IMG/VR virus record: IMGVR_UViG_2671180473_000007
Direction: 5' to 3' (one strand)
Origin: a virus
Taxonomy: Duplodnaviria; Heunggongvirae; Uroviricota; Caudoviricetes
DNA length: 43,998 nucleotides
Of the stretch, positions 7,098 to 43,998 are shown in pieces. Position 1 is the stretch's first letter. Each line of letters starts with the position of its first letter. The notes below the pieces were generated by a model, which saw only the letters and a program-made list of their open reading frames with translations, searched no databases and was not told the origin of the DNA. A program made the position numbers and the translations under genes.

Positions 7098-7102
7098 CCT
7101 GC

Positions 7103-10827: not shown

Positions 10828-10831
10828 TAAA

Positions 10832-10849
10832 GAAGGCCGGAAGGCCTTC
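10832..10849. terminator. Bidirectional terminator hairpin between convergent tfa and tail-fibre genes
   Basis: Stem gaaggcc/ggccttc with ggaa loop, flanked by A/T-rich tracts on both sides. Confidence 0.5.
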
Positions 10850-10858
10850 TGAATATCA

Positions 10859-18917: not shown

Positions 18918-18920
18918 GGG

Positions 18921-19521: not shown

Positions 19522-19535
19522 TACATTTTTCCTGA

Positions 19536-19901: not shown

Positions 19902-19909
19902 GCCTTACC

Positions 19910-21690: not shown

Positions 21691-21693
21691 CTG

Positions 21694-23029: not shown

Positions 23030-23072
23030 ATTTGCCCTCCGCAGGGGCCGGGCCGTAAGCCCGGCTCACCGT

Positions 23073-25153: not shown

Positions 25154-25330
25154 ACCGGCAGCATAAGCCGGGTATTTTTGGGGCTGGTTTTGCGGGACTT
25201 CAGAAAGTGCTGACAGGGGGGGAATGAGAAAGGCGCTTCACGCAGATTTTAAAGCCCGTTAAATACAGGTTAGAAAATCACGACACGCGCCTGAAGGGGG
25301 TAAGGTAATACGTTTGCATACCTTAAACCA

Positions 25331-25804: not shown

Positions 25805-25925
25805 ATTGCCTCCGCATAAAGGATGAATATAAAATAAACAGGCGGTCAGTGTACGCTTAACTGGTAAAGTCGGTGCCTGCCTCCGGGTGGATCATGTATG
25901 CGGGTTCGACCCCCGCCACTGACCG

Positions 25926-28830: not shown

Positions 28831-30497
28831 TACCAGCCCCCCCGATCAAATTCATGATATGCCTCATCGTCATCACGATAACCGCCCTCCATTGCCCGCG
28901 ACCGCTCCTGTAGCGCCTGACAGGCTGATTCATCCAGGATGAAGCCCTCCATGTATGACGCCCGGTTTGCCATACAGAGCGCCACGGCAAAATCACCATG
29001 GCGGCGGGCGTTCGCAGCCGTTGCGTTCTGGTCCTTCGTGCGCCCCTTGTCGATTTGCGGGATACCATTCACTACCTTCACATGGCGCAAATCATCAAGC
29101 GTGGTCTGATGGCGGGCGACGAGGATATTCTGATCTTCAAACTCGGCTTTCAGTTTTGGCATCCACTCGCCGTACCACTTCGGCGACAACATCACGCAGT
29201 CGATGATGTCCGGGCCAAAGGCCAGCAGTGCGGCCTCTGCCAGATAGCCGCCGTTACCGGTGGCGTCGAACGCCGCACCGACCAGCGCCGGAACGCGGGT
29301 CAGGATGTACATCATCACCTGTTCCTGCTGGGCATACGGCAGGTTGCGCAGCTCCACGCGAAACACCTCGCGCTTTGCCAGGGATTCGGTGATTTCCAGC
29401 AGCACAAAGCAGGACAGGTCACCGGTGCGGGCAAAGTCTTCCCCGAAGCTGAAGCGGGAACGGGGATTTAATTTCTCTAAAAGCGGTTTTAAATGTTCTT
29501 CACACCAGGTTAAAACTTCCGATTCACGCAGCCATGCGGCACGGCTGATGAAGTTGTCCGGGGCTTCAAACGTCAGAATCGGGATGTCGCGGATCATCGC
29601 CATTTCAATAAGCGCGTGGGGGATATAGGCACCGCCGGATTTTTTCGGGATACAGCCGTATTCCTCGTCGGCATCCTCACGGGTCGGGGCGTTTTTGTAG
29701 AGATCATCACGCCATTTCTGCTCGCTTTCCGGTGACCATTCCTGATCGGTGACGTAACAGATACGACGGTACAGCCCGTCCGCAATGGCATCATCCAGGG
29801 TTATGCGGTGGACGCTGTAATCCTTGCGCCCCTCGCGGGCTTCCTGAATGTACTGATTAAACAGATTATCGACGCCGTTATGCGTGGAGATAATACGCAC
29901 GCGCGCGCCCCACATAGTGAGCGCCATTGCCGCCTTGAGAAGCTCATCCAGTGACTCGTGGAACGCGGCTTCATCAATCACCACATCCCCCTGAAGGCCG
30001 CGCAGGTTTGACGGACGGGAAGACAATGCCTGAATTTTGAATCCACTGTTCGGAAAGCGGATCATGTAGGTCAAAATTTCTTCTTTTTTATCCCGATCCC
30101 AGAATGTCTGCTCATACACATCAGCATCTGCCAGCTGGTTAAAGGCACGGGAGAACAGCGCGCAGGCAGAAATATATTCCAGCGCCATCTCCTGCTTTGA
30201 TCCCACATAAAACACATTGCGGCCACCACGACGCTTCGGTTTTGCAGCAGTAATGACGTTACGCCCGGCTTCCGCCCAGGTAAGACCGGTGCGGCGGGAT
30301 TTCTCCGCGATGCAGACCTGACTTTCATCTGCAAACCAGCGGGCCTGATAATCCAGAAACACCGGCATATCACCGGGCAAATCAAGGCTGTCCGGCACAT
30401 CCACGCCCAGCAGGGCTTTTTCACCTGACAGATCAATTTTGCGGGGAGGCGTCATTTGCATCAGTGAAGGCGACGTTTCTCTGGCTTTGTTCATCAT
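28830..30497 (-). CDS. Terminase large subunit
   Basis: 555-aa ORF with a VFYVGSKQE P-loop-like segment and acidic blocks, followed by the portal gene. Confidence 0.8.
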   Translation of the reverse strand: MMNKARETSPSLMQMTPPRKIDLSGEKALLGVDVPDSLDLPGDMPVFLDYQARWFADESQVCIAEKSRRTGLTWAEAGRNVITAAKPKRRGGRNVFYVGSKQEMALEYISACALFSRAFNQLADADVYEQTFWDRDKKEEILTYMIRFPNSGFKIQALSSRPSNLRGLQGDVVIDEAAFHESLDELLKAAMALTMWGARVRIISTHNGVDNLFNQYIQEAREGRKDYSVHRITLDDAIADGLYRRICYVTDQEWSPESEQKWRDDLYKNAPTREDADEEYGCIPKKSGGAYIPHALIEMAMIRDIPILTFEAPDNFISRAAWLRESEVLTWCEEHLKPLLEKLNPRSRFSFGEDFARTGDLSCFVLLEITESLAKREVFRVELRNLPYAQQEQVMMYILTRVPALVGAAFDATGNGGYLAEAALLAFGPDIIDCVMLSPKWYGEWMPKLKAEFEDQNILVARHQTTLDDLRHVKVVNGIPQIDKGRTKDQNATAANARRHGDFAVALCMANRASYMEGFILDESACQALQERSRAMEGGYRDDDEAYHEFDRGGW

Positions 30498-30742
30498 GCT
30501 TTACCTGTCAGAATGCTTTTGATTCGGGACTCAAGCTCTTCAGTCATCACGTCCACGCCGCTCAACTCATCAGTGGCAGCCTCTGCCAGCAGCGAATGCA
30601 GTTGTTCCAGGGATATTTCCCCGGCAATGCTGAGTTCAGTCAACTCACGACATACCTTTATGGTTTCAGGAGGTAACTGTGTTGCAAGACTGAATGCTTT
30701 CTGATGGGCACTGCTCATCAGTGAGCGGTTATCTGTTGCCAT
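30494..30742 (-). CDS. Small protein resembling the C-terminus of the upstream gp27-like protein
   Basis: 82-aa ORF ending ...DELSGVDVMTEELESRIKSILTGKA, paralleling ...DELRGVDGMSEQIEFRIRQMLLGKA at the end of 30753..31334. Confidence 0.5.
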   Translation of the reverse strand: MATDNRSLMSSAHQKAFSLATQLPPETIKVCRELTELSIAGEISLEQLHSLLAEAATDELSGVDVMTEELESRIKSILTGKA

Positions 30743-30752
30743 GATTCACCTC

Positions 30753-31334
30753 CTACGCCTTACCCAGCAGCATCTGCCTGATACGGAATTCGATCTGCTC
30801 GCTCATGCCATCCACGCCGCGCAACTCATCGGTGACCGCATTCGCCATCTCTTCAGCAAATGCGGCCCGGATTTCTTTTTCACGCTTAATGCTGCGCTCG
30901 GCGGCACTTTCTGCACGCTGTGCCGACAGGAGGATGTCCTTAATAAGGCGCATATCCACATCGCTGTCGCTGTTCAGGGATTCGGTGGCGGCACGCAGAC
31001 GGCGGTACATCAGGGCACGGGACATCTCCAGAATCAGTGCCGTGGTTTCACCGGTCGGCTTATCCCCCAGTTCGGCCATCATGGCTTTTGTCTGCTCGCG
31101 TAAATCACGCAGATTACGGGCAATCAGCTCATTACGGGAGGCTTCCCGGCTGATGGCCGCCGGTGAGAGCTGCTGCTCTTCCGGCAGACCTGCTTCACGG
31201 ATCAGACGGTTGATTTCCTCGCGGATCTGGACCTGCGTCAGACGTTTTTCACGCAGCATTTCCAGCAGCGGCTTACGGATGCTGTCGGGGAGCAAATCCA
31301 CCTTGCGTACACGGCCACGCGCTGGCTTATCCAT
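30753..31334 (-). CDS. Putative terminase small subunit (Mu gp27-like)
   Basis: 193-aa ORF immediately upstream of the terminase large subunit. Confidence 0.55.
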   Translation of the reverse strand: MDKPARGRVRKVDLLPDSIRKPLLEMLREKRLTQVQIREEINRLIREAGLPEEQQLSPAAISREASRNELIARNLRDLREQTKAMMAELGDKPTGETTALILEMSRALMYRRLRAATESLNSDSDVDMRLIKDILLSAQRAESAAERSIKREKEIRAAFAEEMANAVTDELRGVDGMSEQIEFRIRQMLLGKA

Positions 31335-31336
31335 CG

Positions 31337-31627
31337 TTACCCCCTTGCGCGTGGTTTCTTCACACCCGGAACGGTGGCGCGGCCTTCCGCCACATCCTGA
31401 CCCCGGCCGGTCAGTTCAGCGATGAAATAACCGTTAACAAGCGTGCGCTTACGCACCAGTCCCTGCTCGGCAAGCCAGGCAATGTGGGTATGAACGGTGT
31501 CGCGGGACACGCGGTGACCGTAATCATCCAGGCAGTCCTGAAGCACGGATTCGCCCAGTTCGCCGTTGTAATCCGCCAGCGACCGCAGAATGACAAGACG
31601 CTGATCTTCAGTAATGAAATCACTCAT
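31337..31627 (-). CDS. Hypothetical protein (Mu gp26 position)
   Basis: 96-aa ORF between lysis-region genes and the terminase small subunit. Confidence 0.45.
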   Translation of the reverse strand: MSDFITEDQRLVILRSLADYNGELGESVLQDCLDDYGHRVSRDTVHTHIAWLAEQGLVRKRTLVNGYFIAELTGRGQDVAEGRATVPGVKKPRARG

Positions 31628-31931
31628 TGTGTTTTTTCCTTACAGCCTGCTCCAGCAGCAGTTCGTTCTGATGGGAGACGGATTTCAGGGTGGCATTGGT
31701 GGCCTTAAGCTCACCGCGCAGGGTGGTGATTTCGATATTGAGTCTGTTCACCTCCTGCTGCGTGGGCAGGCCGGAAATCCGGCTCTCCACCCGCTCAACC
31801 CGGTCGGAGAGTTTTTCAAAGGCCTCGCGGGGGACAAAGGTTTTGCGCATCAGCGCCATGAAGATCCCCCCGGCTGTGGCCGTTGCCGACAGGATCGGCA
31901 CGACATAATCTTTAACGATGCTGACCCACAT
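31620..31931 (-). CDS. Membrane-anchored protein (Mu gp25-like)
   Basis: 103-aa ORF with N-terminal hydrophobic helix VVPILSATATAGGIFMALM followed by a coiled-coil-like region. Confidence 0.45.
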   Translation of the reverse strand: MWVSIVKDYVVPILSATATAGGIFMALMRKTFVPREAFEKLSDRVERVESRISGLPTQQEVNRLNIEITTLRGELKATNATLKSVSHQNELLLEQAVRKKHNE

Positions 31932-32139
31932 GACCGGCCTCCATGATGTTCTGGCAGTTCACACAACGGATGGCATCCGGCACGGCAACCAGACGGGCAG
32001 CCGGAATGTCACCCCCGCAGTCCGCGCATACACGCCTGCCCGGTGTCTCCGCCACCCGGCGCTTACGTGTCAGCCGGTCACAAAGGGCGCGTTCTGTTGC
32101 ACGCTCCATGACTGCCTGAGCACAATCTGAATCATCCAT
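31912..32139 (-). CDS. TraR/DksA-family C4 zinc-finger protein
   Basis: ORF track 31912..32205 trimmed to MDDSDCAQAVMERA...; CADCGGDIPAARL...CVNC four-cysteine motif. Confidence 0.6.
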   Translation of the reverse strand: MDDSDCAQAVMERATERALCDRLTRKRRVAETPGRRVCADCGGDIPAARLVAVPDAIRCVNCQNIMEAGHVGQHR

Positions 32140-32149
32140 ACCTTTTTCC

Positions 32150-32521
32150 TTACTTCGTCTTTCCTGCCGGAACAGCAGTCGTTCCGGCCATATCAGTAAA
32201 TTCATGCTGTCGCTGTGTCTCCAGACGGCGGATGCTGGCCTTGTCCACGTTGCAGTTTTTAATCACCGCCAGCAGTTGCAGGTTGTAAGTGACCGATGCA
32301 CCAAACGTGAACGGCTGCGGCGCGGGAGGGACCAGGCAGTCAGCCAGCCATTCAGCGGGGATCGGCACCGGCTTCACCGGCACGTATTTCACAGACGGCC
32401 CGCCGCACCCGGTCAGCCACATCATCAGGCACAGGCACAGCGGCAGCAGGCACCGTTGCCAGTGACCGGCGGACAATGCTCTGCTGTTCCTCGCTGTGCT
32501 GCATGTTCTGCTGTTTTTCAT
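32150..32521 (-). CDS. Outer-membrane spanin (o-spanin, lipoprotein)
   Basis: ORF track 32150..32632; lipobox LTGC followed by a Pro-rich mature region; overlaps the 3' part of the i-spanin gene in another frame. Start uncertain. Confidence 0.55.
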   Translation of the reverse strand: MKNSRTCSTARNSRALSAGHWQRCLLPLCLCLMMWLTGCGGPSVKYVPVKPVPIPAEWLADCLVPPAPQPFTFGASVTYNLQLLAVIKNCNVDKASIRRLETQRQHEFTDMAGTTAVPAGKTK

Positions 32522-32702
32522 TCGTGGCCGCCTTGCTGATTTGTGAAATGAGTTGCAGGGTGCGTTGCTGGTTTGCCAGCACCAGACGGGCTTCGTCCCG
32601 TTCACGCACAAGCACATGATTATTGTCCTCAAGGCGCTGCGTCTTCTGGTGCATTCCCCATACCACGGCAGCCAGCACGCTCATCACCCCCAGCGCCGCC
32701 AT
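32352..32702 (-). CDS. Inner-membrane spanin (i-spanin)
   Basis: ORF track 32352..32873 trimmed to the ATG at 32702 (GGAGG 4 nt upstream): MAALGVMSVLAAVVWGM N-terminal TM then coiled-coil periplasmic domain. Confidence 0.6.
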   Translation of the reverse strand: MAALGVMSVLAAVVWGMHQKTQRLEDNNHVLVRERDEARLVLANQQRTLQLISQISKAATNEKQQNMQHSEEQQSIVRRSLATVPAAAVPVPDDVADRVRRAVCEIRAGEAGADPR

Positions 32703-32814
32703 ACAGCCTCCGGCAATCAGGGCCGGTAAGGGATTGTTCACCGCAGACACAGCACACCCCGCAGCAGCACAACGGCACACAGCAGCGCAATCATGAGCGG
32801 TCGCCAGAAGCGGT

Positions 32815-33315
32815 TCAGACTTTCGGCAAATCGTAACGACATAACCATTCATCCGCCGAACGGCGGGCCTCAAGACCGGGGAGTTTTACCCCCTTTGAAT
32901 AAATCCAGCGGATATACTGCTTACAGGACGCGGGCATCTGCCCGGCATTGATAAGGCGCAGGAGCGTGGAGTTGCGAAAGTTCGTTTCACCGGCCCAGAA
33001 AATCCAGGAGGCCAGCGCCACCGTCTGACCACGGGTAAGCGGCACCTGAACATGACGATCGATAGCCGCAAAGGCCCATTTCATGTCCTTTTCCAGCAGC
33101 TCCAGACACTCTTCATCAGTTTTTGTCATCCCCGGTTTCACATCCGGGCCGGTATGGCCGTAACAGATGGTGGGGGTGCCGGTGGGATCAATGTACGTGG
33201 TGTTTTCTTTCCCTTCCCAGTAGCCGGTGTAGTGCGTGGCAATGGTGAACGTCCCGGCTCCGGCCAGAACAAGGGCAATCAGCTTTTTACGCAGGGGTGC
33301 GGGGAGTTTTGGCAT
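32815..33315 (-). CDS. SAR-endolysin (lysozyme with N-terminal signal-anchor-release domain)
   Basis: 166-aa ORF; N-terminal weakly hydrophobic, Gly/Ala-rich segment LIALVLAGAGTFTIATHYTGYWEG followed by a lysozyme-like domain (ICYGHTG, NFRNSTLLRLINAG) resembling P21-type SAR endolysins. Confidence 0.8.
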   Translation of the reverse strand: MPKLPAPLRKKLIALVLAGAGTFTIATHYTGYWEGKENTTYIDPTGTPTICYGHTGPDVKPGMTKTDEECLELLEKDMKWAFAAIDRHVQVPLTRGQTVALASWIFWAGETNFRNSTLLRLINAGQMPASCKQYIRWIYSKGVKLPGLEARRSADEWLCRYDLPKV

Positions 33316-33386
33316 TGTTACGCTGTCTCATGGTGTTCTCTGAGTCAGCGTAACCGTGAGGAAAAGGGGGCAGGATTTGCGGAATA

Positions 33387-33809
33387 TCAGAAAAGCCGTG
33401 GCTGCGTGCGTTCCTGATGCAGGCGACGCTGGTTGCGGATAACGGAGTAAATCTGCGTCTCTGACATCTGGTAGTGGCGGCGCAGGGTTTCAATTTTTTC
33501 GCCCTGGCTCCAGCGGGAAAAAATTTCATTATTGCGCAGTTCGGTGAAAAGGGATTCACCGACCGGGAGATAATAACCACGCCCGCCCATGTACCCGGCC
33601 TGTGCGGCTGCAACCTTACGGGCAAGCATTCCCGCCTGAGCAGGTTCAATCCCCTGACGGTGCAGTTCAGCACTGATCACATCAACCAGGTCCCGCAGCG
33701 TGCCGGGCCAGTTCTTTTTCAGCTCATCATCAGGAATATCATCCAGACGGTCAATCAGCGCGTGCAGCTGTTCGCTGTCACCAAACATGCTCATCTGTGT
33801 TTCAGCCAT
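33387..33809 (-). CDS. Mor/C-family transcriptional activator (late-gene activator candidate)
   Basis: 140-aa ORF with C-terminal HTH-like region ...LRRHYQMSETQIYSVIRNQRR, directly upstream of the lysis genes. Confidence 0.7.
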   Translation of the reverse strand: MAETQMSMFGDSEQLHALIDRLDDIPDDELKKNWPGTLRDLVDVISAELHRQGIEPAQAGMLARKVAAAQAGYMGGRGYYLPVGESLFTELRNNEIFSRWSQGEKIETLRRHYQMSETQIYSVIRNQRRLHQERTQPRLF

Positions 33810-33879
33810 ACCCGCCTCCGGTCATCATTACACAGGGCAAGTTTAAAATAAAAATCCCGCGCTGTGGCGGGATTTGGGG

Positions 33880-34392
33880 TTAACGGGGGAATGATTTTTC
33901 ATACAGCCTGCAAACACGCTCATAACTCATCACTGCACGTTCCGACATATCCAGGGCTGCCAGCATTTTGCGGCGGTGCCAGCGTTTGAGACGCTCCAGC
34001 ACATCAGAGGCCAGCGCGGGTTGTTGCTCCAGCCACTGCCAGTTAGCCACACCTTCGCCGTCGTTCTGCGCGGCCGTCTGCGATTTCACCCAGCGGTTAA
34101 GGGCCGTTTCCCCGCCATCAGAGATAAATCCCTGCCGGTGCATCACTTTCCAGATGGCGCGAATTTTGGCGGTCACCGTACCCGGTTTTAAGGCCCGGTT
34201 AACCGGCTTCTGACGCACTTTAAAACCGCGTTTTTTGAAAACATCCAGCACGCGGGATAACTCACCGGGTGACATATCACGGCAACTGGATTTGCCGGTG
34301 GCTGCCAGCAGCGCGGATGTATAGGTATCATGGTCAAGCTGTAGATCGCGTTTTGCGACATGTATTAAGGTAATCAGGGAAGCGCGATTCAT
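33880..34392 (-). CDS. gemA: GemA-like regulatory protein (Mu gp16 family)
   Basis: 170-aa ORF immediately upstream of the Mor/C-family gene. Confidence 0.6.
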   Translation of the reverse strand: MNRASLITLIHVAKRDLQLDHDTYTSALLAATGKSSCRDMSPGELSRVLDVFKKRGFKVRQKPVNRALKPGTVTAKIRAIWKVMHRQGFISDGGETALNRWVKSQTAAQNDGEGVANWQWLEQQPALASDVLERLKRWHRRKMLAALDMSERAVMSYERVCRLYEKSFPR

Positions 34393-34403
34393 TATCGTGG
34401 CTC

Positions 34404-34434
34404 CATAAAAAATGGGCGGTGTTACCGCACCGCC
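34404..34434 (-). terminator. Rho-independent terminator (minus strand) inside the early region
   Basis: Perfect 7-bp stem ggcggtg/caccgcc (34415-34421/34428-34434), loop ttaccg, followed on the minus strand by auuuuuuau (plus-strand ataaaaaat 34405-34413). Confidence 0.55.
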
Positions 34435-34462
34435 ATGTCAATTAACATAAAAGGAAAAATCT

Positions 34463-34702
34463 ATGTCAGATATAAAAAATGCACTTGATGTTGCCGCATT
34501 CACAATGGCTGGAAATCTTATGGTAACCCTGTTCGATAAGGGGCTGATTTCCCGTGAGGAGGCAATACATATTATCAATCTCGCTCAAAAAAACTCTACC
34601 CCGGAAAATGCAGAAGATATCCAGGATGGCTCATATATTAATACCGACTGGCATTTCGACAATCTCCGGGCCTGTATGGGGATTACCGCTGAAAAAGATT
34701 AA
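34463..34702 (+). CDS. Hypothetical protein (79 aa), opposite strand to the phage early operon
   Basis: ATG with AAAAGGAAAAA RBS; AT-rich local composition; convergent with and overlapping 34683..34970 by 20 nt. Confidence 0.45.
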   Translation: MSDIKNALDVAAFTMAGNLMVTLFDKGLISREEAIHIINLAQKNSTPENAEDIQDGSYINTDWHFDNLRACMGITAEKD

Positions 34703-34970
34703 AAATTTTTGCATAATGTTCAGATGTAAGAATTGCTGAACCATCAACACCGAGCCTACGGCGAACGTATTCCTCGCGGGCTATTTTATTATCCAGAGAT
34801 ACAGCATCCTTAATCAGGTTAATCTCCCGCTCCATTATCAAAAGGGCTTCTCTGGCTGCAAGATTTTCTTTTATCGCATATTCGATAATGTCCCGCATAC
34901 GTTCAAGCATGCCGATTTTAGCCAGTTCTTCGTCGATAGATTTAGGCGCAAATTTGATTTCTTTTTCCAT
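34683..34970 (-). CDS. Hypothetical protein (95 aa)
   Basis: ORF track 34683..34985 trimmed to the ATG at 34970, coupled to the upstream small ORF stop (TAATATG) with AGGA upstream; AT-rich. Confidence 0.5.
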   Translation of the reverse strand: MEKEIKFAPKSIDEELAKIGMLERMRDIIEYAIKENLAAREALLIMEREINLIKDAVSLDNKIAREEYVRRRLGVDGSAILTSEHYAKIFNLFQR

Positions 34971-34971
34971 A

Positions 34972-35115
34972 TTATTCATCCTCACAATTTATACATGCAG
35001 TGTCGTCGCCCATATCGCAGTGGTTACATTTTATCTCACCACAATGTGGGCACTCTTTCAGATACTCCGGGTCCTCATTTCCACAGGTGGGACATTCAAC
35101 AATTTGCTCATCCAT
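34972..35115 (-). CDS. Small Cys-rich zinc-ribbon-like protein (47 aa), absent from the ORF track
   Basis: My translation: MDEQIVECPTCGNEDPEYLKECPHCGEIKCNHCDMGDDTACINCEDE (eight Cys in CxxC-type pairs); start overlaps upstream stop (ATGGATGA), stop overlaps downstream start. Confidence 0.5.
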   Translation of the reverse strand: MDEQIVECPTCGNEDPEYLKECPHCGEIKCNHCDMGDDTACINCEDE

Positions 35116-35440
35116 TATGTATCCCCTGTAATTCCGGCAAGGCCGAAAGATGGCACCAGTGCGTCACCTGTCCGTCCTCATCTTCAAGGCAGGCTCCGGT
35201 TTCTTCATCAATAAAAAAGCCTTCATACCCCATATGGCCGATGCGCAGTTCCTGTTGGTCACCATACTGAACAATCAGCACGACAGCCTCCATATCAGGC
35301 GGAAATGCGTCATCCAGTGAATGCCAGGGATAACCGCGCAAATCCCCGAAATAAACGCCGGTCAGCGTTCCGCCACAGAGCGGCATTCCGGCGGCACACA
35401 CAAGAGGTTCATCTGATTCAACAAATAAGGTCGTTATCAT
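35108..35440 (-). CDS. Hypothetical protein (110 aa)
   Basis: ORF in operon context, translationally coupled to the downstream small ORF. Confidence 0.5.
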   Translation of the reverse strand: MITTLFVESDEPLVCAAGMPLCGGTLTGVYFGDLRGYPWHSLDDAFPPDMEAVVLIVQYGDQQELRIGHMGYEGFFIDEETGACLEDEDGQVTHWCHLSALPELQGIHNG

Positions 35441-35988
35441 GGCGTTAACTCCCGTAATACAGCGTCCTCGGCAGTCCGGCGACGGTAATAAACTGCGTGA
35501 GCAGAATGTTCAGATATTCCAAACTTTTCGCCAATTTCCCGGAATGACAGACGGCGTGGGTAATCGGAATCACGCAGCTCACGTATAAGACGTACATCAT
35601 CATCAGATATGCGCGTGCCGGGGCGTAACTCTCCGCACTTTGTTAATCCAGCACCAATCATTCCTGCCCGACATCTGACAGAATCTTTATTACGTCCGAG
35701 ATATTCTCCCATTTGCTGGCAGGTCATTGTTCTGGCATTTTTTCGAATAAACTTATCTTCATCAGGTGTAAATCTTGGGTGTTTATATTTCAGTAACTCC
35801 GGGTATGAACTGCGCAATACACCAGTCCGGTTATATACAGCCCAGACAGTTCTTTTTATTCTGGCAGCAATATCCTTAACCGGGGTGGATGAATAAAGCG
35901 CAATCAGCAGCGCATCTTCTTCAGGTGTCCACGGACGGACATGAGCGGGGGCGCGACCTTTTAGTCCCATGGGTTGTAATTTCATCAT
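35437..35988 (-). CDS. Putative DNA-binding protein with C-terminal HTH
   Basis: 183-aa ORF; two W/FTPEED-like repeats and C-terminal LSFREIGEKFGISEHSAHAVYYRRR resembling an HTH. Confidence 0.45.
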   Translation of the reverse strand: MMKLQPMGLKGRAPAHVRPWTPEEDALLIALYSSTPVKDIAARIKRTVWAVYNRTGVLRSSYPELLKYKHPRFTPDEDKFIRKNARTMTCQQMGEYLGRNKDSVRCRAGMIGAGLTKCGELRPGTRISDDDVRLIRELRDSDYPRRLSFREIGEKFGISEHSAHAVYYRRRTAEDAVLRELTP

Positions 35989-35991
35989 GCA

Positions 35992-36507
35992 TCACCCCCT
36001 GACTCGCTTTTCAGCAGCATAAAACTCATCAGACAGTATTTCGGTCATTTTCTGTTTTGCGGGTTTTACGCCGCACTGAAGGTAAATCACATCGTCAACG
36101 CAGAACCACTTCACAGGGCCAAACAGGATTGCCGAGAAATCAATACCCAACCAGAACAACAGCGCATCGGTTCTGGCATACGTGACGGGCGAATATTCAC
36201 GCCACAGACTGTTCAGTTCATCAGAGGCAACACGCAGGGTTTTAGGGATACGTGATGTGCGCGGTGTGCAGCTCCAGCCATTCGACGCAGTCGGTTTTCG
36301 CCATAAGTCGCGATGAAAAGGATATTTGTCCTCCGTAAAACGCAGTCCCTTAAAGTAAAATCCACTGATACCGGATACAAATACCGACCGGCACGCAACA
36401 TTCAGCACGGCCTCAAGGCGTTTTGCCTCATCCTTAACTTTCTGGCAGTCCTGCTGGTATTTTTGCCACGCAGCCAGCGCGGAAGGGTTTGATGTTTTAA
36501 AGAACAT
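35992..36507 (-). CDS. Hypothetical protein (171 aa)
   Basis: ORF in the early-region operon; no recognisable motif. Confidence 0.45.
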   Translation of the reverse strand: MFFKTSNPSALAAWQKYQQDCQKVKDEAKRLEAVLNVACRSVFVSGISGFYFKGLRFTEDKYPFHRDLWRKPTASNGWSCTPRTSRIPKTLRVASDELNSLWREYSPVTYARTDALLFWLGIDFSAILFGPVKWFCVDDVIYLQCGVKPAKQKMTEILSDEFYAAEKRVRG

Positions 36508-37040
36508 TACGCCACCTCCGCAGATATCCCGGCAGGCGCTGCTGTCCGGTCAACAATCAGGTAGCGCAGAACATGTTCAGTGATATTCCAGCCGCTTAAA
36601 CCGCAGATAATGACGCCCAGGCGTATGTCGATATACGCCATCACAAACTGGGGCACGCCTTCTTTCATGGCCTGCTCATCAACTTCAGCCACCACATAAA
36701 CGGTTTCACAGGTCAGAACGCCCTGAGCAAATTCCCACGCCATCGACGGAATATCATGCCCCTCAATCCATGGCAGGGATTTTCTGAAGCCGCACCACTG
36801 AACATCATCAGCCGCAGATTCCTGGCTGCATTTGCGACGAACCGGCTGCACCGGGCGGGGACGCGGAATATCATAAAAACCGTTACATTCCGTCAGCACG
36901 CCTGCATCAACCGCATCACGCAGAAAATAAACCATGGAGGATGGCGGCATATTCATTTTTTCAGCCAGTACACCGCAGGTCAGGCGGCCATAAATACACA
37001 GCCAGTTTTTAACCCCTTCAAGCACTTTTGCATCAATCAT
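36507..37040 (-). CDS. Hypothetical protein (177 aa)
   Basis: ORF in the early-region operon; no recognisable motif. Confidence 0.45.
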   Translation of the reverse strand: MIDAKVLEGVKNWLCIYGRLTCGVLAEKMNMPPSSMVYFLRDAVDAGVLTECNGFYDIPRPRPVQPVRRKCSQESAADDVQWCGFRKSLPWIEGHDIPSMAWEFAQGVLTCETVYVVAEVDEQAMKEGVPQFVMAYIDIRLGVIICGLSGWNITEHVLRYLIVDRTAAPAGISAEVA

Positions 37041-37185
37041 GATTTATTTCCCCACCACATTATTAATGACGATATAAACGTATTTCATATTTCTTAACCC
37101 TTATTTTCTGTTTTCAGGCGCAAGCAGTCCCCTGACGCGAGCGCCATAATTAAAATGAAGTGATATTTAATTGATTAATGCGGTG

Positions 37186-37716
37186 TTATTTATTCAGTCC
37201 GGCGTCCTGTTCAAAAGGCTCGACATAAAAACTTTCAGCGCCTTTATTCACCTTGATACCGGCAATGCCTTTCACAGCATCCGGCTCCGCCAGGACGGCT
37301 TCCTTGTTCACTTCCTCTTTCGTGCGGATGAAACGCTCAAGCCCCATACGGCGCAGCATTTCAATCACACCTTCCACATCACGGCTGACGCTGCATGATG
37401 GCGTTCCCAGCCGCCATGACACCGTTCCGGTGGTCAGATTGGCTGTTTTGGTTTTGCCGCCGTTCGTCAGCTCATCACGGTTGGTTTTGCACCAGTCCTG
37501 AATCCCTTTAAAAAGCACTTTGATTTGCTTTTTAAGATTTTCAATCTGCGGCGTATAACGGGCGGTGATTTCTGCCACTTCGTCATTCATCGCCGTTTCC
37601 AGGCGCAGCGCCTCTCGCTGAATATCTCCCAGGGTGCGGATATCACGGCTGACTTCTTCCCGGGTCTGCGGTGCCGCCTCGGCTGCGGCCTTTAATTTTG
37701 TAACGCGTTTAGCCAT
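37186..37716 (-). CDS. gam: Host-nuclease inhibitor Gam (Ku-like DNA-end binding protein)
   Basis: 176-aa ORF ...DIRTLGDIQREALRLETAMNDEVAEITARY...NRDELTNGGKTKTANLTTGTVSWR..., closely parallel to Mu Gam as I recall it. Confidence 0.85.
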   Translation of the reverse strand: MAKRVTKLKAAAEAAPQTREEVSRDIRTLGDIQREALRLETAMNDEVAEITARYTPQIENLKKQIKVLFKGIQDWCKTNRDELTNGGKTKTANLTTGTVSWRLGTPSCSVSRDVEGVIEMLRRMGLERFIRTKEEVNKEAVLAEPDAVKGIAGIKVNKGAESFYVEPFEQDAGLNK

Positions 37717-37727
37717 TTTGTTTTTCC

Positions 37728-38021
37728 TTATTGCAGTGTGCCTGATGCTTTATGCACGCGGTGGCGTTTAATGATGGCATCCGCTCCAAAAGACTGTGCA
37801 GATGCCTGAAATTCCGCTGAGAGAAACTGAATAATTGCAGGACTGTGATACTGGAGAATACTTGCATAAACGTCACAGAGTGACGTCGGCCTGTTATCCG
37901 TATCACGTTCTGTTTTCACATCCACTCCAATCTTTTCATGCACTTCAACACAGTCATTGCCTGCCAACTTTTCGTCATGCGAAACATGATTAAATTCAAA
38001 AATAACGCGTACTTTGCTCAT
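37728..38021 (-). CDS. Hypothetical small protein, paralogue A
   Basis: ORF track 37728..38048 trimmed to MSKVRVIFEFNHV...; N-terminus parallels the adjacent ORF (MSKVVRIIFEYKED...). Confidence 0.45.
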   Translation of the reverse strand: MSKVRVIFEFNHVSHDEKLAGNDCVEVHEKIGVDVKTERDTDNRPTSLCDVYASILQYHSPAIIQFLSAEFQASAQSFGADAIIKRHRVHKASGTLQ

Positions 38022-38025
38022 GGAA

Positions 38026-38298
38026 TTACCCCTGTTGATTAAATTCATTACCGTTAATAACCCCGGAAGCCATGCCTCTGTCTTTCATGAATGCACTGGC
38101 TTTCATTGCCACAAACTCTGCGAAGTTTCTGCTTTCTGCCAGCATAACCACCCCAAAAATCATGGCGGGTCCATTATCTTTCTTCTTTATTCCGGTTGAA
38201 CGTATATCCAGACTTACCCCTCTGTGCGTGCTGCCATCAGAGTTTTTGCAGATAACATCTTCCTTGTATTCGAAAATAATGCGTACGACTTTACTCAT
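38026..38298 (-). CDS. Hypothetical small protein, paralogue B
   Basis: 90-aa ORF with N-terminus similar to the downstream neighbour. Confidence 0.45.
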   Translation of the reverse strand: MSKVVRIIFEYKEDVICKNSDGSTHRGVSLDIRSTGIKKKDNGPAMIFGVVMLAESRNFAEFVAMKASAFMKDRGMASGVINGNEFNQQG

Positions 38299-38576
38299 CC
38301 TCTGGTCCTCGTTCTGTTTGGATAACTGACCCGGCGTCTAACCTCACGGCAGAACCGAATCATGGCATTAAAGGCTTCTTCCTCCGTCACCGCTTCCGGT
38401 ATCCCCGGAACCAGTAACTGCTCCTGTTCATCACGTCCATGACGCGCCATAACCTCAATCACATGCCGTACCGTGGCAGGCTTTCCGGCAACTATCGGCA
38501 ATGCACCTTCCGGCAGGACGTAACCAAACTCAATAAGACCACTCGACCACGCCCATGCAATGAGATTTTTTTTCAC
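38295..38576 (-). CDS. Hypothetical protein (93 aa)
   Basis: ORF in the early operon; no recognisable motif. Confidence 0.4.
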   Translation of the reverse strand: MKKNLIAWAWSSGLIEFGYVLPEGALPIVAGKPATVRHVIEVMARHGRDEQEQLLVPGIPEAVTEEEAFNAMIRFCREVRRRVSYPNRTRTRG

Positions 38577-38577
38577 C

Positions 38578-38844
38578 TCACACCTCCCAGTAAACCGTGC
38601 AGCCGCTGATGCGGGTGGCCTTCACACGGCGGCGCAGGCCGTTGGTCTGTATGGTGATTTCAATTTCACCGGTTCCCTGCACGTTGCCTACCGGCGGCGT
38701 GGTTTTCAGTGCAAAACGTTGCGGATAGCGCTTACTGCGTTCCAGTACCGCACCGGCAAGTTCGGTCAGACGGCGCGCGCTGTTCAGGGAGTCGAATAAA
38801 TTCATTTTGTTACCGCAGGATTGCATATTCATATAACACCTCAT
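38578..38844 (-). CDS. Hypothetical protein (start uncertain; several in-frame Met)
   Basis: ORF in the early operon. Confidence 0.4.
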   Translation of the reverse strand: MRCYMNMQSCGNKMNLFDSLNSARRLTELAGAVLERSKRYPQRFALKTTPPVGNVQGTGEIEITIQTNGLRRRVKATRISGCTVYWEV

Positions 38845-39072
38845 TTAGCTGACTTGTTTCGCACCAACAGAACGGCATATTCCGCTGTAAACTTCTGTCG
38901 CACCTTCGCGATCAAGTCCGGCAGATATCACCATTCGTGTGCGGTCATTAAATTCAAAAAGTAAATCGCCACATTCTTTATTTTCGGCCAGTGAAATCAC
39001 CTTCACGTTATCGAAATTAACCAGGTAAAAGCGTCCGTAAATATCAGGAATATTAAATACCGCCATAATCAC
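38845..39072 (-). CDS. Hypothetical small protein immediately downstream of B (Mu kil position)
   Basis: 75-aa ORF whose start overlaps the B stop (GTGA). Confidence 0.4.
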   Translation of the reverse strand: MIMAVFNIPDIYGRFYLVNFDNVKVISLAENKECGDLLFEFNDRTRMVISAGLDREGATEVYSGICRSVGAKQVS

Positions 39073-40010
39073 ACCTGTGAGAGTAATTCAGGGTTGGTAT
39101 AAACCTCTTTAAAGGCCGCATTAATATGTTTTTCTGTCAGCGCCGCGCCTTCACCGCTGGCGGTGAGCCACGCCTGGTTAAGCGTATGTGTCAGAACGCG
39201 TAACGCTCCCGGCTTTTCAGCGATAGCCTGCATGACGGCCAGCTCGGCCTCACCACTGATCCCCCACGCCATGGCAATGGCCAGCACATCCGCCTTTTTG
39301 GCCTTGCGAAGTTGTTTTGTACGGGCAAGACGGCTGAACAGGCGCGATAAATCATCAAAGGCGCGGCGTCCACCTTTAAACAATCCGCGCGGGTTACCAA
39401 TAAGCACCATCCCGATCCCCGTGGCGTCCTGAATTGCCCGGAGTTGCTCCAGACCGTCAATACCAAGATGATCCGCCTCATCCACAATCACCAGTCCACG
39501 CGTTCCCATCAGGCGACGGCGGATGGCGCGGGATAATGCCCCTTTGTTCGCGCGGGTGTAATCAATCCCCAGCGCATCGGCCAGCTCCAGCAGACACTCC
39601 GTGACGCTGGAGTGCGCGGGTGACAGGGTGATCATCCAGGTGTTTGGTTGCTCCTGGCAGTAATTACGGGCAGTGGCCGTTTTACCCACACCCGGTACGC
39701 CCACAATAACGTTAATACAGCCCATCAGGCGAACCGCCTGAAACAGTGCGCGCAGCTCCTGGACTGTCTGAGTTTCCACAAACTGCGGCGGTTCCGGCAG
39801 TGCGCTTTGTTTATTCCAGTTCTCATACCAGGAGCGCAGGGAAGCAGCCACAGCAGCGTTATCGCCTTTATATTTTCCCTTACGGAAAGCCGATAATGTG
39901 CCGTCGGAAATTCCCGCCTCTCTGGCGATGGCATACTGCGTCAGTACGCCGCCATCAATAAGTTCATCAATGGTCTTGATTACATCGTTAATATCGGTCA
40001 TATTATTCAC
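39069..40010 (-). CDS. Transposition ATPase B (MuB-like, AAA+)
   Basis: 313-aa ORF with Walker A VIVGVPGVGKTATARNY and Walker B-like LVIVDEADHL, directly downstream of the transposase gene. Confidence 0.88.
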   Translation of the reverse strand: MNNMTDINDVIKTIDELIDGGVLTQYAIAREAGISDGTLSAFRKGKYKGDNAAVAASLRSWYENWNKQSALPEPPQFVETQTVQELRALFQAVRLMGCINVIVGVPGVGKTATARNYCQEQPNTWMITLSPAHSSVTECLLELADALGIDYTRANKGALSRAIRRRLMGTRGLVIVDEADHLGIDGLEQLRAIQDATGIGMVLIGNPRGLFKGGRRAFDDLSRLFSRLARTKQLRKAKKADVLAIAMAWGISGEAELAVMQAIAEKPGALRVLTHTLNQAWLTASGEGAALTEKHINAAFKEVYTNPELLSQV

Positions 40011-40083
40011 CTCGCTTGAGACAGCATTCTCCGAGACTGAAACCTCAAATAACCTGAGTCACCCCTCGGGTTATTTTTTTATT

Positions 40084-42171
40084 TCAGGCCAGCGGATCAC
40101 TTTCTTTTAATTTCGCTTCGAGCAGTTGCAATCCCCGCTGGAAATTACGCTCGTATTCTTCATCAGGTTCATCGTCAGCGACCGGTTGCTGAACGGTCAC
40201 CGTATTACCCACAGGGCGGTATATGTTTTCCAGCCAGGGCTCCTGCGGCTTGTGCTCCAGCACGTTGACAACCTCATCCTCGGCATCACGGATTTTTTCC
40301 TCTGCGCGTTTACGCATGCCTTTAAGGCGCTGCTGCTGTTTGTAGTATTCCGCGCTGACAGGGAAGGCTTCGCGTTTATTGCCGTCCCATACCGCCTCGC
40401 AAATCACGCTGCCATCCGGGCGGCGCACGGTAATTCGTTCGGCATCATGAATGTCATAGCTGATAAGTACCTTACGGCCATGCTCGTCACGCAGCTCGGG
40501 CGCGTAGTAAATATTATTCAGCCAGCGTATTTCACAGCGTCTTACAGGGCGCTCCACCATCGGCCGGAACATATCCCGCAGTTCAACATCGGACAGCCAT
40601 TCAATTTCCGTGTCCTCTTCCGCCAGGCGTTTTTTTCTGAACTCCGCCGGGCTGTAATGTTTACCGTTCGGCTTCATGGGTAATTCATCGTGCGGCCGGT
40701 TGTTGTACCACTCAACACCGTCACGAATGGCATCAATCAGTTCAGACCAGGACGGTAAATCACGCATCGCTGACTGCTGCCGGGCGTTCAGCCGTTTGCC
40801 CTGTTGCAGGGCACTGAATGCCGAGCGTAAATCGCGGTTGGTTTTACGTAACGTCTCGCGATCTGCTCCTTTCCCGAAATAGGTGCGGTATTTACGGGCT
40901 ATGCGCATCGGTAATGTGCGGTTAAGCCGTTCGATAATGCCCCGTCCCTGCGGATTACCGGCAATCCCTGTCGGGTGATTAATCCCCAGTCGTGGCAGTA
41001 TCCCCACAATCTCCTTATCCAGGACGTCGGCGGTTTCCCCGGAGCCATTATCCGAGTAATACAGAAACGGTTTGCCATGATGGCGAATACCGTGCTGTAT
41101 GGCACCGGCTACGGCGAAAACATTTTCAGCCAGGTCAAGGCTCCAGCCCACCACAAAGCGCGTGCCACCGTCGATAACAAAGGTCACTTCCGGTGCGAAT
41201 GGCCGCCCGTGAACCGGGTGCGCGCATTTCAGCTTCATGCCGTGACCGTCACCAATCCAGACATAATTCACCGGCATTCTGGACCAGTCGCGGCGCGTGA
41301 ATCCCTCAAGCTGACGGTATTCACTGCCAGTTACCCGGCCTTTTTGTTTCACCACTTCCGGCAGTTTCTTCATTGCGCGGCGAATGGTGTCATAAGAGGG
41401 CATGATATCGAGCATATAAGGCTCATCAGCGTGCCGGTGCTGCCATTCAGCAACAAAATCCTCGTAAGCCTCGGTCATTGGTCGGCCGTTTGACTGGCGA
41501 TACTGCGCCAGAAATTCGGGCAGCCAGTTAATATCTTCGGCTTTTATTTCCTGGCGTTTACCCGGTGCCAGTAAAAGCAGGCGTTCAGCGGCGTTCTGTG
41601 CCTTGTTAAAGGCCGCAATCCAGCGTTTCAGCGTGATTTCACTCAACGCGCGGCTGTTTCCCTTTTTGGCGTTCGCCGTCTCAACCATTGCCACAATGCG
41701 CTCGTCCAGTTGTGATCGTGCCAGGCTGTTAACGAGGAACCGGATAGCTTTAGCGCAGCTGAAACCGGGTTGTTGCGTGAATTTCAGCACCTCACTGACG
41801 ATCGCAATGCGTGCGTCTGCCACCTGGCGCTGGTTTTCAGTCAGGGCATTGAGGCGTTCGACCATCAGTTGTGGTGATCCGCGATATGCCTCCACCGCAT
41901 CAACCACGGCAGACGAGCGTCTGGCCTTTGTCACCACCGGAGCCGGTGATTCATCGGCTTTTTGCGTCATCAGTTGCAGGGCATAACGTTCGCGTAATGC
42001 CTGCTGTGTCACTTCAGGTAAACAGTCAATGCTGTATTCAAAACCTTTAGCGCCTTTCTTGCGGCGTCTGCTGGTTTCGCTGGTTGCATACTTCCTGATT
42101 GAATAGCGAACGCCTTGCTCCGTTCCCGGCATCCCCGGTAATCCAACCAGTTCTTTAACTGAAGCAAACAT
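40084..42171 (-). CDS. Mu-like DDE transposase (MuA family)
   Basis: 695-aa ORF; N-terminal end-binding domain resembling MuA as I recall it, central integrase-type catalytic core, followed by the B gene. Confidence 0.9.
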   Translation of the reverse strand: MFASVKELVGLPGMPGTEQGVRYSIRKYATSETSRRRKKGAKGFEYSIDCLPEVTQQALRERYALQLMTQKADESPAPVVTKARRSSAVVDAVEAYRGSPQLMVERLNALTENQRQVADARIAIVSEVLKFTQQPGFSCAKAIRFLVNSLARSQLDERIVAMVETANAKKGNSRALSEITLKRWIAAFNKAQNAAERLLLLAPGKRQEIKAEDINWLPEFLAQYRQSNGRPMTEAYEDFVAEWQHRHADEPYMLDIMPSYDTIRRAMKKLPEVVKQKGRVTGSEYRQLEGFTRRDWSRMPVNYVWIGDGHGMKLKCAHPVHGRPFAPEVTFVIDGGTRFVVGWSLDLAENVFAVAGAIQHGIRHHGKPFLYYSDNGSGETADVLDKEIVGILPRLGINHPTGIAGNPQGRGIIERLNRTLPMRIARKYRTYFGKGADRETLRKTNRDLRSAFSALQQGKRLNARQQSAMRDLPSWSELIDAIRDGVEWYNNRPHDELPMKPNGKHYSPAEFRKKRLAEEDTEIEWLSDVELRDMFRPMVERPVRRCEIRWLNNIYYAPELRDEHGRKVLISYDIHDAERITVRRPDGSVICEAVWDGNKREAFPVSAEYYKQQQRLKGMRKRAEEKIRDAEDEVVNVLEHKPQEPWLENIYRPVGNTVTVQQPVADDEPDEEYERNFQRGLQLLEAKLKESDPLA

Positions 42172-42173
42172 AA

Positions 42174-42404
42174 TTACGCGACCTTACGAATGTAGCGGCT
42201 GGGCCAAATCTCCTCGGGCGGCACCCCCAGGCATTCCGCGATAATCCCCTCATACTTGGGAACATGGCGGTATACCGCGTTGTACAGATTGTTCTGACCC
42301 ACGCCAGCTTTACGGGCCAGCGCCCTCATGCTTCCTTCTCTGGCTCTGACTTCCCCCAAAATTCTTTGAGGATGCCAATCAGGCTTAACTTCATTTCTCG
42401 CCAT
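42174..42404 (-). CDS. ner: Ner-like DNA-binding regulator
   Basis: 76-aa ORF with HTH and C-terminal ...EEIWPSRY motif as in Mu Ner; immediately upstream of the transposase and divergent from the repressor. Confidence 0.85.
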   Translation of the reverse strand: MARNEVKPDWHPQRILGEVRAREGSMRALARKAGVGQNNLYNAVYRHVPKYEGIIAECLGVPPEEIWPSRYIRKVA

Positions 42405-42589
42405 GATTCATCTATCCTAAAAAGTTACGAAATTTGATAACTAAACTTAGTTATCAAGTTTGATATAAGTATTGATCCACTTCTGCTTCATGTAAAGCAA
42501 AAAAAACATCTTTCTTTTGTCTATTGTGGATCAATGGTTGCTGACAACACTAAAAGTTAATAATTTCAAATTGATAGGAAGAAAAGAAA
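42405..42589. promoter_or_regulatory. Divergent repressor/ner control region with palindromic operator candidates
   Basis: GATAACTAA-ac-TTAGTTATC (42433-42452, perfect 9-bp arms) and inverted pair ATTGATCCAC (42469-42478) / GTGGATCAAT (42524-42533). Confidence 0.5.
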
Positions 42590-43135
42590 ATGAACAAGCA
42601 AACAACAACATCTCTTTCTTTTCCTGGTGGTAGAAAAGAAAGCATTGCTGAGCGTCTGAAAAGGCTGATTGGCTCCCGCAGCGTCAGAGCTGCAGCAAGA
42701 GATTGGGGGCTTTCATTTTCAACACTAAACAATTATCTGTCTCGTGGCACTGAGCCATCCTTAAGTGTCGCCCTTCAGATTGCGTCTATCGAAGGAGTAA
42801 GTGTTGAGTGGCTATGTGGATTCAGTGATGCATCACAAGTGAATCGGTGTGAGATCAAGGAAAATCAAGATGAAAGCAAGAAGATAATTATGACGATTAT
42901 CAGCGCACTTGATGAAAAAGACTTAGAGCAGCTATCGAAAAATTTGGTTCTGAATGGAGCCAAGTACTTAGCTCGGTTGTTAGAGCCTGAAAATCAAGAT
43001 CTAATCCGCTTAGAAGGAAGGAAAAGAATAGCTGCATTACAGCTTGAAGGTATGTCTGACGAACGCGTCAGAGAGATTTTGGAAGAAACTGAGAGAAGTC
43101 GCAAATCTAACGCGGTAGAACCAAAAGCGGGTTAA
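42590..43135 (+). CDS. Putative prophage repressor (Mu c position; HTH_XRE-type N-terminus)
   Basis: 181-aa ORF with AGGAAG RBS, divergent from ner and nearest the phage end; N-terminal ERLKRLIGSRSVRAAARDWGLSFSTLNNYLSRGTEPSLSVALQIASIEGVSVEWL resembles a Cro/CI-type HTH. Confidence 0.65.
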   Translation: MNKQTTTSLSFPGGRKESIAERLKRLIGSRSVRAAARDWGLSFSTLNNYLSRGTEPSLSVALQIASIEGVSVEWLCGFSDASQVNRCEIKENQDESKKIIMTIISALDEKDLEQLSKNLVLNGAKYLARLLEPENQDLIRLEGRKRIAALQLEGMSDERVREILEETERSRKSNAVEPKAG

Positions 43136-43207
43136 TAGCATTAGCCCGCATTTTGCACTATATCGAGTATTTCGCATTGTTTGGAACGCCTTAAAAGACT
43201 AAAACCA

Positions 43208-43371
43208 CAGTATCAAATGAGTTGCCGATTTTATAATAAATGACTAATTATTGCACAATCGGTATCAAATAGACCTTATCCGCACATCTAGCCATCACCT
43301 GTTTTATTTCAGTATCTTACAGGTGATTTCACCTCCTTTCACTAAACCCCTTGTCGGTATCAAATGATTCA
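43208..43371 (-). repeat. Repressor-proximal (attL-like) end: three spaced ATTTGATACCG-type repeats; phage terminus ...GATTCA at 43371
   Basis: Reverse-complement motif copies at 43354-43365, 43259-43270 and 43208-43219 (variant); wide spacing resembles Mu L1-L3. Confidence 0.6.
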
Positions 43372-43692
43372 CCTGGTTATATGTCGCCAGTCGATACCTT
43401 CCAGCAGCATCGCCAGCTGCGCCTGTGTAAGGAACACTTTGCCATCACGGGCTGACGGCCAGGCGAAGCGCCCACGCTCCAGCCGTTTGGTCAGGAGGCA
43501 CAGTCCGTCACTGGTGGACCACAGCAGTTTAACCTGACTGCCGCTGCGGCCCCGGAAAATGAAAACATGGCCGGACATGGGATCGTCTTTCAGCGCCGTC
43601 TGTACTTTCGCAGCCAGGCCGTTGAAGCCATTTCTCATATCGGTGATACCGGCAACCAGCCAAATTTTGATCCCGGAAGGTAACGGGATCAT
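43369..43692 (-). CDS. IS66-family TnpB (Orf2)
   Basis: 107-aa ORF with WLVAGITDMRNGFNGLAAKV...GHVFIFRGRSGSQVKLLWSTSDGLCLLTKRLERGRF, characteristic of IS66 Orf2; its stop abuts the phage terminus. Confidence 0.8.
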   Translation of the reverse strand: MIPLPSGIKIWLVAGITDMRNGFNGLAAKVQTALKDDPMSGHVFIFRGRSGSQVKLLWSTSDGLCLLTKRLERGRFAWPSARDGKVFLTQAQLAMLLEGIDWRHITR

Positions 43693-43998
43693 CGCTTCAG
43701 TTCCTGTATCAGCAGAGTCAGGAGCTTTTCGCTGACATTGCCATTGAAGCGGAGCGTCCCGTGCCGGAACGTTACCTCACAGCTGATACTGAGGGTTTTC
43801 GGGTCCTCTGCGAGCGATTCTGGCTGTTCGGCAGCTGCATCGAGAGTCACAGGAAGTAGCTGGGGGCTCTCTGAAGAAGGTAATAGCTGAGGTGTACTGG
43901 CAATAGCGGACACTACCATTTGTTCTTTTTTTAAGCAGCCATCTGATGATATTTTTCCCTGAAGGCTGCCGGGGAGATATTCCCCAGACGAGAGTGAC
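43372..43998 (-). mobile_element. IS66-family element, tnpA-tnpB portion (continues beyond window)
   Basis: tnpA and tnpB ORFs; the expected tnpC is replaced by the Mu-like prophage end at 43371. Confidence 0.7.
43689..43998 (-). CDS. IS66-family TnpA (Orf1), 5'-partial at window edge
   Basis: Track ORF 43689..43919 with frame open upstream to the window end and no RBS before the first ATG; overlaps tnpB by 4 nt as usual for IS66. Confidence 0.6.
   Translation of the reverse strand, partial: SLSSGEYLPGSLQGKISSDGCLKKEQMVVSAIASTPQLLPSSESPQLLPVTLDAAAEQPESLAEDPKTLSISCEVTFRHGTLRFNGNVSEKLLTLLIQELKR

Follow-up and report, generated by a model that had tools for sequence, protein, structure and literature searches.

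Genes and features of the locus

The DNA analyzed here (43,998 nt; "the window" refers to this whole stretch) carries a complete Sp18-type, Mu-like transposable prophage of 38,633 bp (5'-TATAGCG...GGTTATA-3'; 4749..43381, minus strand), which was delimited by comparative alignment. The phage map runs from right to left in the window. At the right, a repressor gene (42590..43135, plus strand) of the HTH_3/CI type and not the Mu c type reads toward the prophage end. It is accompanied by a Ner-like early regulator (42174..42404, minus strand; Pfam HTH_35), a 695-aa MuA-family DDE transposase (40084..42171, minus strand; recognized by MuA alignment, hhalign, and Pfam), and a 313-aa MuB-like AAA+ target-selection ATPase (39069..40010, minus strand; Pfam Phage-MuB_C and AAA_22). 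At the far left, the DNA modification gene mom (4877..5614, minus strand; identified by Pfam Mom and by the annotation of an identical region elsewhere) likewise reads toward the end and is overlapped by com (5568-5768). Given that the repressor, ner, and transposase genes lie at the right and com and mom at the far left, the right end is the repressor end and the left end the mom end. The same polarity had been assumed in a preliminary description of this DNA, and it agrees with the gene layout.

Near the mom end (7103-9815), the prophage encodes a protein of 684 aa in which a sialate-O-acetylesterase-like (SASA) domain and DUF6645 were recognized. A Gin/Hin-type invertase (9243-9815) and tail-fiber assembly genes adjoin it, which points to an invertible host-range region.

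The prophage lies within an IS66-family element, 35 nt upstream of the tnpB stop codon. The left part of this target (4163..4748, minus strand) comprises the final tnpB codons, the adjoining intergenic DNA, and a tnpC with an internal deletion of approximately 1.07 kb, and the right part (43382..43887, minus strand) contains tnpB and part of tnpA. On the tnpA side the element is truncated at approximately 43888 by a copy of IS600 (IS3 family), so that the mobile elements are nested (4163-4748 and 43382-43998). The chromosomal context consists of a ratA-like gene (405-881), smpB (1013-1495), and the tmRNA gene ssrA (1710-2072; tag ANDENYALAA). After ssrA come low-GC tail-fiber remnants (2271-4146), apparently what is left of a degenerate prophage that used ssrA as an integration hotspot.

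Prophage termini and target-site duplication

Prophage ends were mapped by aligning the window with copies of this prophage that lie in bcsA, sgrR, qor, sorM (Sakai), and the lateral-flagellar gene motA. Across six independent insertions, including the one in IS66 here, homology breaks off at 4749 and 43381 every time and the outer base varies; the element is therefore 38,633 bp long. The repressor-side end (attL equivalent; 43208..43381, minus strand) contains three widely spaced repeats and the mom-side end (attR equivalent; 4749..4832, plus strand) three clustered ones. The preliminary description had allowed that comparative alignment might place the ends elsewhere. The aligned ends enclose all six repeats, and it is the right boundary proposed there (43371) that has to be moved, being 10 nt short of the mapped repressor-side end at 43381 (the mom-side end is at 4749).

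Both ends are bordered by TGTC (4745..4748 and 43382..43385), and comparison with the uninterrupted IS66-family element, which reads CTTAGGCTGTCGCCAG, identifies these copies as a 4-bp target-site duplication. A duplication of 4 bp was recovered in all six insertions (TGTC, CGTC, TGTT, CAGA, TAAA, and GGGG, of which TAAA belongs to Sakai Sp18 in sorM), with the uninterrupted target compared for the IS66, bcsA, and qor insertions. When the identical procedure was applied as a control to the Mu prophage in E. coli W, it returned a 5-bp duplication (GCCGC). Reading the Sp18-type duplications as 5 bp by shifting the boundary 1 nt was also tried and rejected; such a shift works for qor or bcsA alone and is contradicted by IS66, sgrR, sorM, and motA. 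The TOE17 insertion was left out of the count, given that the mom end is absent where the 38.6-kb length predicts it.

The terminal bases at the mom end are TA in all relatives examined (four). At the repressor end they are TA in the window and the Yersinia phage, and TG in Sp18, strain 102651, and the Klebsiella phage. Mu duplications measure 5 bp and B3 duplications 6 bp, and TG-CA ends were conserved in all described Mu- and B3-like phages until TA-TA prophages were found in Leptospira (PMC8705779). The 2021 survey of transposable prophages reported only 5- and 6-bp scars and treated TA ends as new (PMC8705779), so the 4-bp repeat of this family falls outside the lengths given for transposable phages. 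No description of a 4-bp duplication in Mu-like phages was found in the searchable literature, which does not extend to older subscription papers.

End-proximal repeats

A motif search across the 44-kb window located three copies of the 11-base motif ATTTGATACCG near each prophage end, the two sets being mutually inverted. At the mom end, on the plus strand, these are R1 (TTTTGATACCG, one mismatch; 4765-4775, nt 17-27 from the terminus), R2 (exact; 4787-4797, nt 39-49), and R3 (ATTTGATACTA, two mismatches; 4822-4832, nt 74-84), with R3 oriented as R1 and R2. At the repressor end, on the minus strand, these are L1 (exact; 43355-43365, nt 17-27 from the terminus), L2 (exact; 43260-43270, nt 112-122), and L3 (ATTTGATACTG, one mismatch; 43208-43218, nt 164-174). 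All six cores run from outside to inside, and the outermost site starts at nt 17 from the terminus at both ends. The three inverted copies per end that had been proposed earlier are thus borne out, with the proviso that only three of the six are exact and the others carry one or two mismatches. The proposed contrast between wide spacing at the repressor end and tight spacing at the mom end also holds, with start-to-start distances of 95 and 52 nt at the former and 22 and 35 nt at the latter.

When up to one mismatch was allowed, ATTTGATACCG matched the window six times against an expected 0.61 ± 0.86, and none of 100 shuffles reached six. Five of these matches lie no more than 175 nt from the prophage termini, so the motif is not spread over the genome at similar density, an outcome that would have spoken against the earlier proposal. 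The sole internal near-copy (CTTTGATACCG; 23600-23610, minus strand) lies within a head-protein ORF and is probably due to chance.

Conservation of the repeats in related phages

Ends were compared among six relatives: the window, Sakai Sp18, an O157 strain with the qor prophage, strain 102651, Yersinia phage vB_YpM_5, and Klebsiella phage Kp4866-3. In tblastn comparisons, the Yersinia transposases fell within 80-90% identity and the Klebsiella transposase reached 57%. Across these E. coli, Yersinia, and Klebsiella relatives, TTGATAC is invariant in 30 of 30 sites (25 distinct; 2.0 bits per position), and information content drops to approximately 0.2 bits in the DNA between and flanking the sites. 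The extended consensus is approximately GG.AAAT.ATTTGATACYGA, with weak conservation on the terminus side of the core. Strong conservation is limited to the 11-bp core, and any 22-bp site would be weakly conserved in its end-proximal part.

Site positions are also shared. At the mom end the sites start at 17, 39, and 74 in all relatives examined, except that the third is at 73 in Klebsiella. At the repressor end, L1 starts at nt 17 in six of six relatives, and L2 and L3 start at 112 and 164 in the E. coli prophages, 121 and 163 in Yersinia, and 87 and 129 in Klebsiella. Alignment with the ends of other Mu-like prophages had been suggested as a check on the repeats, and in these six relatives it places sites at matching positions around an invariant core. 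Phage SuMu, whose transposase is 43% identical, has a different repeat (TTTTGCATAG); its ends could not be fixed because the record includes host flanks and shows this different repeat.

Transposase

The transposase is colinear with MuA (residues 1-685 against 3-655; 23% identity, E = 1e-13), and hhalign gave a probability of 97.8%. Pfam searches recognized HTH_Tnp_Mu_1 and Mu-transpos_C and returned no match to the I-gamma domain (HTH_Tnp_Mu_2) or to DDE_2. When compared with solved structures, residues 2-62 match the enhancer-binding I-alpha domain of MuA (1TNS, E = 7e-6) and the core matches RSV/ASV integrase. D308, D374, and E414 probably form the catalytic triad.

MuA end sites are bound by the I-beta and I-gamma domains (PMC3362531), and the corresponding region of the transposase encoded here is predicted to be helical. 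An AlphaFold2 model built from a 13-sequence alignment (79-93% identical) had a mean pLDDT of 43 and was confident only for residues 1-67. Because this model was unusable, it is the colinear alignment that points to the candidate end-binding domains. The closest relatives of the transposase among isolated phages are Yersinia vB_YpM_5 and vB_YpM_6, Klebsiella Kp4866-3, SuMu, and D3112-like phages; identity is 43% for SuMu/FluMu and 30% for D3112.

Comparison with Mu

Mu sites were computed by scoring NC_000929 with the 22-bp MuA consensus, which was checked against the Mu sequence. This placed L1 at 6-27, L3 at 151-172, R1 at 6-27, R2 at 28-49, and an inverted R3 at 56-77; L2, near nt 112, scored weakly, within about 109-141. 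Each Mu end is known to contain three MuA sites with differing spacings (PMC3145075). The prophage resembles Mu in having three sites at each end, the outermost ones at equal distances from the two termini, a 22-bp period from R1 to R2, and a long L1-L2 spacer at the repressor end followed by L3. The genetic layout is also alike, with c, ner, A, and B beside one end and com and mom beside the other, the transposase being colinear with MuA and a MuB homologue being present.

Several properties differ. The site consensus is ATTTGATACYG as opposed to TGNTTCAYTNNAARYRCGAAAA in Mu, and only the TCAYTTGA part aligns, approximately 5 bp further from the terminus. R3 is direct in the window and inverted in Mu, the termini are TA...TA and not TG...CA, the duplication is 4 bp and not 5, the repressor is not of the Mu c type, and the transposase is just 23% identical to MuA. 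The preliminary description had likened the arrays to Mu L1-L3 and R1-R3; the likeness stands for site number, spacing pattern, and the 22-bp period, but the third mom-end site departs from it by being direct. It had also stated that the motif differs from the Mu consensus. The 22-bp MuA consensus is indeed not matched, but the two are not wholly unrelated, as is visible when the Yersinia left end is aligned with that of Mu: aTCATTTGA pairs with TTCACTTGA (the TTCAYTTGA part of Mu L1), again approximately 5 bp further from the terminus. The core in the window ends at nt 27, as does Mu L1, and the register of the sites relative to Mu is uncertain. Four properties that define Mu in the narrow sense were looked for and not found, namely its consensus, TG/CA termini, a 5-bp duplication, and an inverted R3, and the element therefore falls outside strict Mu.

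The outermost dozen bases at the mom end are G+C-rich (TATAGCGCGGCGA, 4749-4761) and resemble the last 13 nt of the Mu right terminus (TGAAGCGGCGCAC), a likeness that hints at common descent of the right-end tip or at a requirement common to both phages.

The Sp18 family and other transposable elements

The element is clearly an Sp18-type prophage. Sakai Sp18 has a 94% identical transposase, genes in the same order, a mom end without differences in its first 120 nt, and a c end that is approximately 91% identical with the sites at the same positions; the 4-bp duplication is also shared. The two differ at the c end (TGTAACC in Sp18, TATAACC in the window) and in the repressor allele, which is 42% identical. 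Sp18 has been described as Mu-like, intact, not circularized, and efficiently packaged (PMC2669165), and as occupying different sites in different O157 strains (PMC7430833). A description of Sp18 end sites or of its duplication length was not found in the searchable literature. Among 5,426 complete E. coli genomes, 233 contain members of the family; these account for 284 places spread over many loci, with as many as four in one genome, and the family is mobile.

Taken broadly, the MuA-family transposable phages also clearly include this prophage, which has a MuA-homologous DDE transposase and a MuB-like AAA+ ATPase beside the repressor-side end. With the B3/Tn552-type phages, including the Leptospira TA-TA prophages, it has in common that these are transposable, approximately 38 kb long, and in some cases bounded by TA termini (PMC8705779). 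Those phages make 6-bp duplications and have no enhancer-binding domain, whereas the prophage in the window makes a 4-bp duplication and its transposase has an I-alpha-like N-terminus (1TNS). On both of these grounds it falls outside the B3/Tn552 type.

A looser parallel may be drawn with Tn7, whose ends contain multiple TnsB sites that are spaced at the left and contiguous at the right (PMC9308760). By analogy only, both would be DDE elements with asymmetric arrays of transposase sites and an AAA+ target selector. Tn7 differs in its transposase family and consensus, duplicates 5 bp, and is not a phage.

Alternative explanations for the repeats

The repeats have been considered above chiefly as sites for the transposase. 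Of the other explanations, the one that survives best, though it is improbable, is that they are bending sites for IHF, HU, or Fis, or a packaging signal (pac). Mu requires HU in its L1-L2 spacer and has pac in its left end, and the reverse complement of the core, TATCAAA, includes the IHF core WATCAA, so some copies could be used by a host factor. However, the 3' TTR of the IHF consensus is absent at five of the six copies, and the conserved TTGATAC with its flanks exceeds what IHF requires. A pac site is required at one end only, but the motif is symmetric and equidistant from both termini. Furthermore, in the Yersinia and Klebsiella relatives the spacer is filled by a separate Mu-like segment: the L1-L2 spacers of vB_YpM_5 (approximately 2265-2310 of the sequence compared) and Kp4866-3 (26-65) are clearly homologous to Mu left-end nt 28-67 (CCGGGAGGA..TGGAT..CGGGAT..GATGGGAT), the region where Mu pac maps. 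Given that this Mu-like spacer is flanked by Sp18-type transposase sites, the ends of these two phages are mosaic.

The L1-L2 spacer of the window contains a hairpin (43294..43327) with a 9-bp stem (ATCACCTGT/ACAGGTGAT) and a 16-nt loop, which is kept in E. coli relatives only. CAGGTGA occurs three times between the terminus and L2 (43369-43375, 43294-43301, and 43320-43326), also in E. coli relatives only. For the hairpin and the CAGGTGA copies, possible roles are termination of c, packaging (pac), and DNA bending.

It is more improbable still that the repeats are operators of the repressor or Ner, or regulatory sites controlling c or mom. The Mu repressor and transposase have a common DNA-binding domain, and the intergenic region between c and ner in the window contains a near-perfect palindrome (AAATTTGATAACTAA/TTAGTTATCAAGTTT, 42430-42461) that has TTTGATA in common with the end motif. 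Both arrays, however, lie outside promoter regions because they are downstream of genes that read toward the ends (c on the plus strand and mom on the minus strand). The repressor of the window is of the HTH_3 type, without similarity to the N-terminus of the transposase, and the palindrome is restricted to this immunity type, with no counterpart in Sakai, Balcarce, or Yersinia. The end motifs are the same in relatives that have different repressors, as between the window and Sakai, and c-ner intergenic regions that are unrelated among the compared phages, which argues against an operator role. As far as sequence comparison goes, the end motif tracks the transposase and not immunity.

The palindrome itself is probably the operator of the repressor of the window. 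At least three repressor types occur among prophages with approximately 94%-identical transposases: that of the window is HTH_3/CI-like, and that of the O157 prophage inserted in qor has a Mu c-like winged-helix N-terminal DNA-binding domain. This variety would indicate modular exchange of immunity regions. A Mu-type transpositional enhancer was not identified in the c-ner intergenic region, where the only TTTGATA element is the immunity-type-specific palindrome.

Chance, or low-complexity AT-rich repetition in intergenic DNA, would account for the abundance of loose matches (22 against 11 expected at two mismatches) but is refuted, with a probability close to nil, by the shuffles at up to one mismatch and by a core that does not vary between the E. 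coli, Yersinia, and Klebsiella relatives even though the neighboring DNA diverges, and it also leaves the identical offset from both termini unaccounted for.

Proposed function of the repeats

The six repeats very likely serve as the sites at which the prophage's own MuA-family transposase binds the ends, and would be equivalent to those in attL and attR. The Mu-like reading is supported because the TTGATAC core is invariant in relatives whose flanks and repressors diverge, and because a full-length MuA homologue followed by a MuB-like ATPase lies nearby. The original suggestion that these are transposase-binding repeats is thus strengthened, at the level of sequence, by their position inside the mapped termini, their inverted arrangement, their invariant core, and their tracking of the MuA-like transposase. 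Direct observations are the sites themselves with their conservation and their symmetry about the mapped termini, the insertions at multiple loci, the 4-bp duplication, and the homology between the transposase and MuA. Searchable papers were screened for binding or footprinting data on the Sp18-type lineage, and none were found.

Under the transposase-site reading, monomers would bind each site using the helical segment that separates the I-alpha-like N-terminal domain from the DDE core, and the asymmetric arrays (17/112/164 and 17/39/74) would pair both ends into a transpososome. Subunits on the outermost sites would then introduce nicks at the ...TA-3' termini and connect these to target phosphates on a 4-bp stagger, the target being delivered by the adjacent MuB-like ATPase, and repair or replication would leave the 4-bp duplication. 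We infer the physical binding, the stoichiometry, the identity of the catalyzing subunits, and the cause of the 4-bp stagger in this scheme.

Implications for the Sp18-type family

End sites are expected in any Mu-like phage, and the site arrangement is ordinary for such a phage. The main gain is an exact map of a widespread prophage family, one that is present in approximately 4% of complete E. coli genomes and that includes Sp18 of O157. With exact ends, a site consensus, and a duplication length, members can be annotated precisely and their insertion sites called. Sp18-type ends are also candidate ends for an orthogonal mini-transposon tool.

What is modestly novel is that 4 bp are duplicated, that the termini are TA, and that the site register is altered. 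We lean toward the view that Sp18-type phages are a natural MuA-family lineage with a 4-bp stagger (as opposed to 5 in Mu and 6 in B3), which accepts ...TA-3' instead of the near-universal ...CA-3' and has end sites approximately 5 bp further from the cleavage point than those of Mu. The 4-bp duplication, TA termini, direct R3, and shifted register, occurring with a transposase that is colinear with MuA, provide a natural comparison for studies of how the architecture of the transpososome determines stagger and end recognition. If previously undescribed, such a 4-bp/TA lineage would offer a comparative handle on what fixes the stagger in DDE transpososomes and what governs their requirement for a particular terminal nucleotide.
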